Source: Parasphingorhabdus sp.
GTDB lineage: Bacteria; Pseudomonadota; Alphaproteobacteria; Sphingomonadales; Sphingomonadaceae
DNA: 64,000 nucleotides
Assembly: GCA_048270065.1 (NCBI GenBank)
Contig: JBLWTQ010000014.1
Span: 11,921-75,920 of the forward strand
Reading direction: 5' to 3'
Shown here one piece after another: positions 18,857 through 64,000 of the stretch (its first letter is position 1; every line of letters begins with the position of its first letter). The position numbers were made by a program, and so were the translations under genes. The notes under the pieces were generated by a model. It saw only the letters and a list, made by a program, of their open reading frames with translations, made no database searches and was not told where the DNA came from.

Positions 18857-18941
18857 TATTCCTGCGGAGGCAGGGGTCCATCTCGTGCGATTGCGTCCGG
18901 ATGCACTAGTCAGAGATGGACCCCTGCCTGCGCAGGGGCAC
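18856..18941. repeat. 86-bp palindromic (REP/MITE-like) element, copy 1, between convergent asnB and truA
   Basis: Arms cctgcggaggcaggggtccatctc / gagatggacccctgcctgcgcagg (23/24 complementary) around a 28-nt spacer. Confidence 0.88.
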
Positions 18942-25250: not shown

Positions 25251-25336
25251 GTGCTCCTGTGAAGGCAGGAGCCCATCTCCAAATCTGTCGTCCAGACGCC
25301 ATTTCAGGAGATGGACCCCTGCCTGCGCAGGGGAAC
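25251..25336. repeat. 86-bp palindromic element, copy 2, between def and rmuC
   Basis: Right arm identical to copy 1 over gagatggacccctgcctgcgcagggg; same length and central GTCCNGAYGC motif. Confidence 0.88.
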
Positions 25337-60582: not shown

Positions 60583-61455
60583 TTGTCCGATACGAAGCCG
60601 CTCAGCTTCCAGCAGATCATCCTGAAACTCCACAATTACTGGAGCGATCAGGGCTGCGTGATCCTGCAACCCTATGACATGGAAATGGGGGCCGGGACGT
60701 TCCACACCGCGACAACCCTGCGCGCGCTCGGTCCCGATCCGTGGAACGCCGCCTTCGTCCAGCCCTGCCGCCGTCCCACCGACGGCCGCTATGGCGAAAA
60801 TCCCAACCGTTTGCAGCATTATTACCAGTATCAGGTGGTGCTCAAGCCCTCGCCGCCGGATATCCAGCAACTCTATCTCGACAGTCTGGTGGCGATCGGC
60901 ATCGATCCGATGCTCCACGATATCCGCTTCGTCGAGGATGACTGGGAAAGTCCGACGCTCGGCGCCTGGGGGCTGGGCTGGGAAGTCTGGTGCGACGGCA
61001 TGGAGGTCACCCAGTTCACCTATTTCCAGCAGATGGGCGGCTTTGACTGCAAGCCGGTGGCCGGCGAGCTGACCTATGGGCTCGAACGGCTGGCCATGTA
61101 CATCCAGAATGTCGACAGCGTTTATGATCTGGATTTCAACGGCAATGGAGTGAGTTACGGCGATATCTTCATGGATAATGAGAAGCAGATGTCGGAGTGG
61201 AATTTCGAGGTCGCCGATACCGAAACCCTGTTCGACCTGTTCAACAAGGCGGTCGGCGAATGCGAGAACTGTCTTGACGCCAAGCTGCCGATCCCGGCCT
61301 ACGAGCAGGCGATCAAGGCGAGCCATGTCTTCAACCTGCTGCAGGCGCGCGGCGTGATTTCGGTCCAGGAACGCGCCAGCTACATGGGCCGCGTCCGCGA
61401 TCTCGCCAAGGGCAGCTGCGAGGCGCATATGGTCAAGAACGGATGGGCGGCGTGA
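60583..61455 (+). CDS. glyQ: Glycine--tRNA ligase alpha subunit
   Basis: [61 protein letters not shown]; TTG start. Confidence 0.97.
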
Positions 61456-61607
61456 AGGTTCTCGCAATATCTATTTCCTCCCCGTTGCGCAGCAATGGGG
61501 AGGTGGCGTCCGCCGTAGCCTTGGCGGAGGCGGATGACGGAGGGGCCCCTCCACCGCGCTGCGCGCGGTCCCCCTCCCCGTGCTGCGCACAGGGAGGAAA
61601 ATCATGA
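61452..61607 (+). CDS. 51-aa repeat-derived mini-ORF bridging glyQ and glyS
   Basis: GTG overlaps the glyQ stop (GTGA); open for 51 codons ([51 protein letters not shown]); TGA overlaps the glyS ATG (ATGA). Translation is not demonstrated. Confidence 0.4.
61476..61598. repeat. 123-bp composite palindromic element, copy 1 (glyQ-glyS spacer)
   Basis: Terminal IR tcctccccgt / acagggagga; central palindrome ggaggggcccctcc; near-identical reverse complement of 62533-62655. Confidence 0.92.
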
Positions 61608-64000
61608 CCGACTTCCTGCTTGAACTGCTGTCCGAAGAAATCCCCGCCCGCATGCAGGCGAAAGCGCGCGCCGACCTCGAGCGGCTGTTCACCGAACAAA
61701 TGGCCGAAGCGGGCCTGAAGGCCGGCCCTATCACCGTCTGGTCGACGCCAAGACGACTTGCGCTCATCGCCCGCGACCTACCGGCCGAGACCGAAGCGGT
61801 CAGCGAAGAAGCCAAGGGACCACCCGAAGGCGCGCCCGATCAGGCCGTCGACGGCTTCTGCCGCAAGAATGGCGTCACCCGCGACCAGCTCGAGGTACGT
61901 GACGTCAAGGGGCGCCCGACCTGGTTCGCGGTAATCGACAAGCCCGGCCGCGACACCAGGGATGTGCTGGCAGAAGCCATCCCGGCGATCATCCGCGCCT
62001 TCCCGTGGCCGAAGTCGATGCGCTGGGGTGACGCCAGTACATCGACCGAAAGCCTGCGCTGGGTGCGGCCGCTGAGCGGCATTGTCGCGATATTGGGCGA
62101 TGATCTGGTGCCATGCGAAATTGACGGGGTGGCGTCAGGCTACGAGACGGTCGGACATCGCTTTCATCACTCCGTTCGCCCTGAGCCTGTCGAAGGGCAG
62201 CATGGCAAAGATGCTTCGACAGGCTCAGCACGAACGGAACTGGGCGGAATCACCATCGGTAACGCCGGCGATTACGCCGAGAAACTGCGCGCCTGCCATG
62301 TGATTGTCGACCATGAAGAACGCCAGAATATCATCCGCGAGGGCGCTGCCAGGGCGGCGGCGGACGCCGGCCTGCAACTGGTCGAGGACGAAGGGCTGGT
62401 GATCGAGAATGCCGGCCTGACCGAATGGCCGGTGCCATTGCTCGGCAGCTTTGACCCGGCGTTTCTGGACGTCCCCGAAGAGGTGATCCAGCTGACCGCC
62501 CGGGTGAACCAGAAATATTTCGTGTGCAAATATCCTCCCTGTGCAGAGCACGGGGAGGGGGACCATCCGAAGGATGGTGGAGGGGCCCCTCCGTCATCCG
62601 CCTCCGCCAAGGCTACGGCGGACGCCACCTCCCCATCGCTGCGCGACAGGGAGGAAAAACTGGCCCCCTATTTCGTCTGCACGGCCAATATCGCCGCCAG
62701 CGACGGCGGCAAGGCGATCATCGCGGGGAATGAAAAGGTCCTCGCCGCAAGACTCTCCGACGCCAAATTCTTCTGGGAACTTGACCAGAAGACGCGATTG
62801 GAGGATCATGCAAAGAAATTGAGCAACATTGTGTTCCATGAAAAACTGGGCACGGTTGCCGACAAGGTAGAGCGTGTGGCCAAGTTGGCCGAGTGGCTGG
62901 TTTCTTTAGAAGGGAATGGTTTTTACCAGTCCAGCCCCGGCGATACATTTCATGGTGAAGTGTCCGAGGCCGCACGTCTCTGCAAAGCCGATCTCGTCAC
63001 CGAAATGGTCGGCGAGTTCCCAGAGCTGCAGGGCTTGATGGGCGGCTATTATGCAGAGAAAGAAGGAAAGTCCGCCGCGGTCGCCAACGCGATCCGCGAC
63101 CATTACAAGCCGGTCGGGCAGGGTGACGATGTGCCCACCGATCCGGTGACGGTGGCGGTGAGTCTGGCGGACAAGCTGGATACTATTGGATCGTTCTTCG
63201 CTATTAATGAAAAGCCGAGCGGTTCCCGTGATCCTTTTGCGCTTCGCAGGAGCGTTTTAGGCGTGATTGCGATTTTAGTGGCTAATGGACTGCGAGTGTC
63301 TCTCGTTCGTTCAAGTTTGCGAGTGATTATCCTGTTGAAGGAGCAGGAACTCCGTAACATTAAAGCAGATACAGTTGGGTGGAGAGAAGTTGATTCAGCA
63401 TACCAAAAAATTGATCAAATTTTGGACGAACCCGGAATATCAGTGGATAAAGAAGTAGAGTACGTTCTTGAAAATTGGGCCAAAAGCAAAGCTCCAAAAG
63501 GTTCGTCATTGGAAATGCCTTCGCCGGAAGATGACGATGATATGGATGCCTATTTGGATGGCGATATTCCCATGTCAGAAATGTCTCTTCCGGAAAGTGA
63601 CGAAGACACGGAAGCGTATTTCGATAACGTAATTTCGTTCTTCGTTGATCGCCTCAAAGTTCAACAACGTGAAGCGGGTGTCCGTCACGACCTGATCGAC
63701 GCGGTATTCGGTGATAAAGGCGAAGATGATCTGGTGCGGCTGCTCGCCCGGGTGAAGGCGCTGCAGGCCTTTGTCGCAACCCCGGACGGCGAGAATCTGC
63801 TCGCCGGTTACAAGCGGGCTTCGAATATTTTGAAGAAAGAGGGCGGCACCAGTGCCCCTGCGGAGGCAGGGGCCCATCTCCCGACCTCTGGTCCTGACGC
63901 ACCGGTCCGTGATGGACTCCTGCCTGCGCAGGAGAACAATGTCCTTTCCTACACGCCCGAAAAAGCCGAAAAGACCCTGATCGACGCGCTCGACGCCGCT
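61604..64000 (+). CDS. glyS: Glycine--tRNA ligase beta subunit (3'-truncated by window), with in-frame repeat insertions
   Basis: Manual translation is open to the window end: [116 protein letters not shown]; SD AGGGAGG. Confidence 0.96.
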   Translation, partial: MTDFLLELLSEEIPARMQAKARADLERLFTEQMAEAGLKAGPITVWSTPRRLALIARDLPAETEAVSEEAKGPPEGAPDQAVDGFCRKNGVTRDQLEVRDVKGRPTWFAVIDKPGRDTRDVLAEAIPAIIRAFPWPKSMRWGDASTSTESLRWVRPLSGIVAILGDDLVPCEIDGVASGYETVGHRFHHSVRPEPVEGQHGKDASTGSARTELGGITIGNAGDYAEKLRACHVIVDHEERQNIIREGAARAAADAGLQLVEDEGLVIENAGLTEWPVPLLGSFDPAFLDVPEEVIQLTARVNQKYFVCKYPPCAEHGEGDHPKDGGGAPPSSASAKATADATSPSLRDREEKLAPYFVCTANIAASDGGKAIIAGNEKVLAARLSDAKFFWELDQKTRLEDHAKKLSNIVFHEKLGTVADKVERVAKLAEWLVSLEGNGFYQSSPGDTFHGEVSEAARLCKADLVTEMVGEFPELQGLMGGYYAEKEGKSAAVANAIRDHYKPVGQGDDVPTDPVTVAVSLADKLDTIGSFFAINEKPSGSRDPFALRRSVLGVIAILVANGLRVSLVRSSLRVIILLKEQELRNIKADTVGWREVDSAYQKIDQILDEPGISVDKEVEYVLENWAKSKAPKGSSLEMPSPEDDDDMDAYLDGDIPMSEMSLPESDEDTEAYFDNVISFFVDRLKVQQREAGVRHDLIDAVFGDKGEDDLVRLLARVKALQAFVATPDGENLLAGYKRASNILKKEGGTSAPAEAGAHLPTSGPDAPVRDGLLPAQENNVLSYTPEKAEKTLIDALDAA
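62172..62237. repeat. 66-bp palindromic element inserted in frame in glyS
   Basis: 24-bp arms ccgttcgccctgagcctgtcgaag / cttcgacaggctcagcacgaacgg (22/24 complementary), 18-nt loop; 22 codons. Confidence 0.92.
62533..62655. repeat. 123-bp composite palindromic element, copy 2, in frame in glyS and inverted relative to copy 1
   Basis: Perfect 10-bp terminal IR tcctccctgt / acagggagga; 41 codons. Confidence 0.92.
63852..63937. repeat. 86-bp palindromic element, copy 3, in frame in glyS
   Basis: Aligns without gaps to 18856-18941 and 25251-25336; read through as SAPAEAGAHLPTSGPDAPVRDGLLPAQEN. Confidence 0.9.

Follow-up and report, generated by a model that had tools for sequence, protein, structure and literature searches.

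How does an essential gene come to carry several stretches of repetitive DNA in frame, and how do they persist there? The question is raised by glyS, the gene for the beta subunit of glycyl-tRNA synthetase (GlyRS), in a stretch of 64,000 nucleotides (hereafter the window) of a Parasphingorhabdus sp. draft genome (assembly GCA_048270065.1, contig JBLWTQ010000014.1, positions 11,921 to 75,920 of the forward strand), in which three palindromic elements of three different families lie within the coding frame. We analysed this locus together with the whole assembly (3.34 Mb, 35 contigs, ~57 % GC) and with GlyS proteins of related bacteria. It appears highly probable that dispersed selfish palindromes landed in glyS and persist there as harmless loops.

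The adjacent genes glyQ and glyS, encoding the alpha and beta subunits, were confirmed by Pfam (Table 1) and specify the sole GlyRS of the genome, in which the model of the dimeric-type enzyme (TIGR00389) found no match. The full open reading frame (ORF), taken from the whole genome, encodes a GlyS of 868 aa, and its frame is uninterrupted across three inserts that fold as DNA hairpins (z -3.2 to -7.6 for the elements versus shuffled sequences), as an earlier note on the window, made from its letters alone, had claimed. The coordinates and peptides given in that note were essentially right, and the inserts do directly follow the conserved blocks GHRFHH, NQKYFVC and NILKKE; the third element, however, measures 81 nt instead of 86, and the summed gain relative to orthologues with empty sites amounts to 88 residues (23 + 38 + 27) instead of about 92. 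The indel of insert 1 comes to 69 bp and that of insert 2 to 114 bp (38 aa).

Table 1. Coordinates of glyS, its inserts and related features; positions refer to the window, or to another contig of the assembly where a contig handle (C9, C10, C12) precedes them
Feature	Position	Strand or orientation	Details
glyQ, GlyRS alpha subunit	60583-61455	+	PF02091, E 1e-144
glyS, GlyRS beta subunit	61604-64000, with ~207 nt more past the window end	+	PF02092, E 5e-173
Insert 1, family A palindrome	62171-62238 (68 nt)	+	read as SVRPEPVEGQHGKDASTGSARTE; +23 aa after GHRFHH
Insert 2, family B composite palindrome	62531-62657	+	read as YPPCAEHGEGD...SLRDREEK; after NQKYFVC
Insert 3, family C palindrome, dimer of REP-like hairpins	63857-63937 (81 nt)	+	read as APAEAGAHLPTSGPDAPVRDGLLPAQE; +27 aa after NILKKE
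Family B element, occupying the whole glyQ-glyS spacer	61474-61598	inverted relative to the intragenic copy	125-nt inverted repeat
Family C copy between ORFs	18861-18941		
Family C copy between ORFs	25256-25336		
Hypervariable glyS segment, end of HD domain	63260-63640 (residues ~553-680)	+	outside families A, B and C; GC ~0.43
GIY-YIG gene	C10:93466-93681		between family A arms
GIY-YIG gene	C10:94756-94971		between family A arms
GIY-YIG gene	C12:81180-81398		between family C modules
GIY-YIG gene	C9:79047		between canonical NTS-like units TGTCATTCCCGCGAAGGCGGGAATCCAG
DUF559 gene	C10:111445-111765		precisely within the variable centre of a B element

Insert 1 forms an almost perfect hairpin (-27.6 kcal/mol, z -6.7 for the DNA fold). 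Two of the three families also have intergenic copies in the window, as had been noted, i.e. family B in the glyQ-glyS spacer and family C between ORFs at two places; no further copy of family A was found within the 64 kb. The spacer B element, which is 90 % complementary to the glyS copy at 62533-62657, has a strong DNA fold (-48.4 kcal/mol, z -7.0), and its 3' end, AGGGAGGA, immediately precedes the ATG of glyS. This arrangement recurs: at several loci (glyS, C1:31440, C2:141054, C9:50679 and C24:17690) the family B 3' end AGGGAGGAAA (61591-61606 at glyS) stands 5-15 nt ahead of the ATG of the downstream gene, so that the repeat seems to supply Shine-Dalgarno sequences.

That the inserts are DNA repeats and not protein-level indels follows from their multiple copies, their hairpin-forming sequence and their absence at the same codons in orthologues. 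An iterated nhmmer search of the genome retrieved ~97 loci of family A, 23 of family B and 47 of family C. Family A has conserved arms, CCGTTCGTCCTGAGCYTGTCGAAGGAC ... GYNCTTCGACARGCTCAGSACGAACGG, enclosing a variable loop, and the composite elements of family B, TCCTCCC...GGGAGGAAA, have a variable centre. Family C is an inverted pair of units resembling repetitive extragenic palindromes (REPs), of the form CCCCTGC-NNNN-GCAGGGG-TCCA, many lone units of which are also dispersed. Its unit gtG-CCCCTGC-GCAG-GCAGGGG-TCCA has the short GC stem (7-9 bp), 4-5-nt loop, CCA-like tail and head-to-head dimer arrangement of REPs, an architecture from which families A and B depart by longer and different arms. 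Four further families defined below (A', A'', D and E) are likewise dispersed repeats in this genome. In comparison with MITEs (miniature transposable elements with inverted repeats), the elements are palindromic over their whole length; the flanks of 45 A copies showed no consistent target-site duplication, and the search for a parent insertion sequence was not exhaustive. Strict membership of the SRM/CGTC class was rejected for all three families: the consensus HGTCWY..YYVSBRH..WNVSBRG..RNCYNB overlaps none of the 97 A, 23 B and 47 C loci. The pattern has 24 matches in the whole genome, i.e. about the chance level, and the arms of the GIY-YIG gene on contig C9 are among them.

GlyS was recovered from 15 genomes of the same genus plus outgroups, and from 46 named or metagenome-assembled sphingomonads. 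Orthologues have 3 residues at site 1, 8 at site 2 and 6-9 at site 4 (the position of insert 3). The unoccupied site 1 reads HRFHH-x-G-x-(I/V)T, its anchors separated by 3 residues, in 46/46 of the other sphingomonads and in seven genus members. Seven genus members have an A-type element at exactly the same position, of differing subfamilies: A in the present genome and L007, A' in L004 and L010, and A'' in L002, L003 and L006. L011 has a mere 4-residue extension (GPEK), possibly a remnant.

The occupants of the two other sites differ as well. Family B is present at site 2 in the present genome, L002-L004 and L015 (where ~110 bases in the middle of the insert read as N); in L003 an additional element is nested within it, L005 has a different CCCTCCC/GGGAGGG element (family E), and L008 has the scar KYPPNAQHGED, which looks like the product of a deletion between the pair of directly repeated GGGAGG motifs in a B element. 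Site 4 is occupied by C in the present genome and L006, by hairpin D in L002, L003 and L015, and by A'' beside a D remnant in L008 and L010. Since A', A'', D and E are themselves dispersed repeats, divergence in situ between families is implausible, and these are separate insertions or replacements. Counts of gains and losses were attempted and abandoned, as maximum-likelihood trees of the conserved glyS blocks were poorly resolved within the genus and their 5' and 3' parts were discordant.

Three additional observations concern site 4. Across sphingomonads its length ranges from 6 to 79 residues, and many of the peptides are recognisably repeat-derived. An optional conserved peptide, I(P/A)QTGEEDPLALVDDP..., is present in many genera (L034, L035, L039, L042, L043, L044, L045, L080, L091 and L107); its appearance is not that of a repeat derivative, and it may act as a functional linker module. 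Compared by eye, the family C insert with its immediate flanks (63852-63950) shows few differences from that of L006 (genome G001), seemingly fewer than expected for the remaining gene, and the tree of the 5' part of glyS groups G001 with species bearing hairpin D at site 4; local recombination may account for the closeness of the C insert in the two genomes.

The positions of the inserts in the protein were assessed by alignment to E. coli GlyRS beta (7YSE/7EIV), with domain limits as given by Ju et al. (PMC8464048), and on an AlphaFold2 model built from a 48-sequence alignment (mean predicted local distance difference test, pLDDT, 80.9). Site 1 falls in domain B1 (around E. coli beta residues 193-196), site 2 in domain B3 (around 289-294) and site 4 in the anticodon-binding domain (around 593-600). 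In the model, the region of insert 1 (residues 190-213) is coil between two strands (pLDDT 53-57), that of insert 2 (residues 310-352) is coil at the tip of a beta-hairpin between strands 306-309 and 353-361 (pLDDT 44-69), and that of insert 3 (residues 746-786) is disordered between two helices (pLDDT 35-41); the core flanking the inserts is mostly above 90. The prediction supports the earlier view of tolerant surface positions: the three inserts are modelled as flexible surface loops or linker.

The earlier note had also proposed glyS as a preferred target or sink, and on this point it did not stand. Verified in-frame copies were found in at least 12 further housekeeping genes of this genome. 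Family A accounts for two copies in ValS, two partial copies in UvrA, one partial copy in an E2 acyltransferase and a copy in each of Lhr helicase, TruB, TrmD and TrpE, and A' for that in SufC; family B is present three times in DnaE, family C in PheT and LigA, and IleS holds an A next to a B. The open frame of ValS ranges from 919 to 1061 aa within the genus; other synthetases therefore vary likewise. These copies were identified with a codon-usage filter and Pfam/NCBIfam checks, which left ~20-25 intragenic copies, the counts being approximate. An ORF-spanning criterion alone, which gave 47, was discarded because GC-rich antisense frames stay open and many of the calls were antisense shadow ORFs with no Pfam match. 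Of the repeat copies, only ~10-15 % are intragenic in a genome assumed to be mostly coding, a low share as expected if purifying selection acts strongly against the majority of insertions into genes. Among the in-frame A copies that passed the filter, 10/11 are read in the hydrophilic VRPEPVEG frame and the remaining copy in the PFVLSLSK-type frame, which is hydrophobic; a TGA is present in the third. This bias fits what would be expected as the residue of selection for harmless hydrophilic loops.

Concerning the origin of the repeats, the earlier note had pointed to trans-acting nucleases encoded elsewhere, and the architecture of the genome agrees with it. Four DUF559 genes and eight small GIY-YIG ORFs (GIY-YIG by Pfam PF01541; an NCBIfam search of these ORFs gave no match) were identified. 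Members of both groups stand between arms of the repeats (Table 1), and the DUF559 genes not listed there are flanked on both sides by related CCTCCC/GGGAGG hairpins. Within the genus, 23/30 DUF559 loci lie between inverted hairpins of 18-43 nt and of the CCTCCC/GGGAGG type, and 22/30 GIY-YIG loci between hairpin inverted repeats; every repeat family seen in glyS of the genus thus has a nuclease-carrying counterpart. GIY-YIG proteins with 76-100 % identity to the query have A arms, those with 57-62 % have A'' arms and those with 36-44 % have NTS-like or C arms; judged by these identities, the protein clade co-varies with the arm family. From this architecture we infer that the nucleases may generate or move the repeats. 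The other mobiliser considered, a REP-associated tyrosine transposase (RAYT), was rejected, as the single PF01797 match is an IS200-type TnpA (C16:33052-33405) which has its own unrelated hairpin and is not flanked by A, B or C.

A broader proposal may be put forward tentatively, although we consider it rather less probable than its negation. DUF559 proteins (Vsr-like PD-(D/E)XK nucleases) and their flanking CCCTCCC-N4-GGGAGGG hairpins might together form a second, hitherto undescribed family of selfish nuclease-hairpin cassettes as a parallel to Ssn/NTS, whose ORF-less B/E derivatives would have spread through sphingomonad genomes, donating Shine-Dalgarno sequences and becoming protein in essential genes (glyS, dnaE), with occupied loops acting as landing pads for family replacement. 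In a literature search of limited coverage, no publication was found that connects DUF559 genes with dispersed hairpins on their flanks.

Several known systems invite comparison, and the two to which the earlier note had turned, Rickettsia palindromic elements (RPEs) and CGTC-type REPs, are the proper ones. Di Nocera, De Gregorio & Rocco (2013) described REPs with GTAG or CGTC tags that lie within genes, mainly those for replication, repair and tRNA-related functions (PMC3733652); among the cases in their Additional file 3 are a REP dimer in glyS, the beta subunit gene, of the sphingomonad Erythrobacter litoralis (ELI_05865, residues 398-423), REP copies in E. litoralis ileS, truB and dnaE2, and one in X. 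oryzae glyS. Those REPs and the present elements are alike in being short GC-rich hairpins, often head-to-head dimers, mostly intergenic and sometimes in frame, and their host genes are of the same functional groups. However, the E. litoralis glyS insert occupies another site, three families share one gene here, and families A and B are longer and fall outside the published consensus. RPEs (Ogata et al. 2000; summary in PMC10969869) are translated palindromes in many unrelated Rickettsia housekeeping genes, with hydrophilic peptides thought to be surface-located. Like them, the elements studied here are multi-copy palindromes, in frame and stop-free inside conserved genes, and absent from the orthologous sites; they differ in their host, which is free-living with a 3.34-Mb genome of 57 % GC, in their size (~70-125 bp versus ~150 bp in that summary), and in sharing the genome with nuclease-carrying long forms.

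Regarding these long forms, Ssn GIY-YIG nucleases cut single-stranded DNA beside flanking hairpins, as shown for Neisseria and Wolbachia homologues, and Sphingomonas was named among the repeat-rich genera in the same Ssn/NTS study (PMC11893778). The cassettes described here resemble that system in their small single-domain GIY-YIG genes placed between dispersed inverted hairpins and in the pairing of clades with their own repeat variant. By contrast, canonical NTS-like arms occur here in one cassette (on contig C9), the A, A'' and C arms differ from them, and the present cassettes are known at the level of sequence; furthermore, PMC11893778 does not treat translated intragenic copies. In the REPIN/RAYT systems of Bertels & Rainey (2011; PMC3116915), a single-copy enzyme is believed to move dispersed hairpin dimers in trans; the genome-wide dispersal of hairpin dimers is a point of similarity, but the present genome has no RAYT.

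According to the explanation that we favour, three dispersed REP- or MITE-like palindromic elements would have inserted into glyS. An insertion would persist where the gain is divisible by three, the used frame has no stop and the peptide is hydrophilic and rich in Pro, Gly, Ala and Glu; such peptides, located in an interdomain linker or at the tip of a hairpin, would leave the fold undisturbed. The inserts would then be survivors of purifying selection, not adaptations: gene-disrupting copies would be lost, and those in the few loops that tolerate them, in large housekeeping proteins of modular build, would be retained and translated. Once occupied, a site would turn over by replacement or nesting by other families and by deletion between short direct repeats. 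The short elements would be ORF-less forms of cassettes whose arms enclose a small nuclease gene, which is of GIY-YIG type with Ssn-like architecture for A, A'' and C, and of DUF559 type for the CCTCCC/GGGAGG families B and E.

This explanation was weighed against four others. The most serious is specific targeting of glyS: its three positions would be recognised by the elements or by the nucleases belonging to them, so that homing and not tolerance would account for the pattern. The presence of three families within a single gene speaks for it, as do the occupation of the same codon positions by three or four different families in congeners and the use of site 1 in 8/15 genus members (7 with a clear repeat-type insert and L011 with its 4 aa) versus 0/46 other sphingomonads. 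Yet the empty-site sequences of the three positions have, by eye, no evident common motif, at least 12 other genes contain in-frame copies and the majority of copies are intergenic; site 4 is a variable linker throughout the family, and nested copies and remnants are more readily explained by insertion into a resident hairpin, or beside it, than by recognition of glyS itself. Loop tolerance combined with turnover at occupied sites explains the pattern better, and we hold targeting to be unlikely. Somewhat less likely still is that the peptides have been co-opted, either for a GlyRS function such as tRNA or partner binding or for regulation via mRNA hairpins. That an open frame has been maintained through the elements, that the A copy is a nearly perfect hairpin and that the glyS B copy pairs with an inverted B bearing the Shine-Dalgarno sequence of glyS could be taken in this sense; nevertheless, close relatives have no insert or an unrelated one at the same site, the peptides are predicted to be disordered, and the same peptides are found in unrelated proteins.

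A further alternative is removal of the inserts before maturation, by RNA-level excision or protein splicing. Against it, the net sizes are in every case divisible by three, no stop codon falls within them and one hydrophilic frame is strongly favoured, size differences between species are in frame, and intron or intein features are lacking; in addition, RPE-bearing Rickettsia proteins were reported to be expressed in vivo, according to PMC3733652 citing its ref. 49. We therefore give removal very little credence. Least credible of all is an assembly artefact: although the genome is a draft of many contigs and the elements are repeats, glyS lies in the interior of a 103-kb contig, and independent congener assemblies, including complete genomes, have B at site 2, C at site 4 and the spacer B. 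Persistence of selfish palindromes in tolerant loops thus remains preferred, and several points weigh against it. The resolution of the glyS gene tree is too poor for counting gains and losses. Site 1 holds several subfamilies within the genus and yet is occupied in none of the 46 other sphingomonads, a restriction which pure tolerance does not predict and which calls for a degree of site memory or targeting. The placement in loops comes from a predicted model and the E. coli GlyRS alignment, not from a solved structure of this protein; translation and neutrality of the peptides are inferred; and the nuclease link is architectural, and the genes could instead have settled into pre-existing hairpins.

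Besides the three inserts, glyS contains a hypervariable segment (Table 1) whose GC content is 0.42-0.46 versus 0.57-0.59 for the gene and which is modelled with low confidence (residues 567-665, pLDDT 46-72). It measures 28-138 aa, and its sequence is unrelated in nearly every one of ~60 sphingomonad GlyS proteins; congeners that are ~88 % identical elsewhere carry unrelated cassettes, and a few cassette types are common to distant lineages. The cassette of L006 is 67 % identical to that of a Sphingomonas metagenome-assembled genome (L075), equal to the identity of the N-terminal region (first 300 aa). These comparisons suggest cassette exchange or an old polymorphism, not simple drift. As for the wider relationships, the best GlyS match among the other sphingomonads is that of Qipengyuania algicida (79 % across the first 189 aa), and the N-terminal identity is 57-79 % with Sphingomonadaceae and 39-53 % with genomes labelled as the same order but other families. 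Within the assembly, contig C28 (20.8 kb) has a GC content of 0.39 versus ~0.57 for the remainder and may be a plasmid, a phage or a contaminant.

Translated repeats in housekeeping genes are a published phenomenon; the three additions made here, namely multi-family turnover at fixed codons of one essential gene, co-variation of GIY-YIG clade and arms, and a consistent architecture of DUF559-hairpin cassettes, are in our view of moderate interest. The locus offers a compact view of selfish hairpin DNA turning into protein in a free-living bacterium: at three fixed sites of a single gene, six or more repeat families have left traces of having been inserted, replaced, nested and deleted. Inserts of this kind make aminoacyl-tRNA synthetases longer and more diverse in length, and may mislead the annotation, alignment and phylogeny of marker genes. 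Finally, as nuclease-bearing long forms are present in the same genome, the link of Ssn-like and DUF559 nucleases to translated repeats is testable in culturable sphingomonads.

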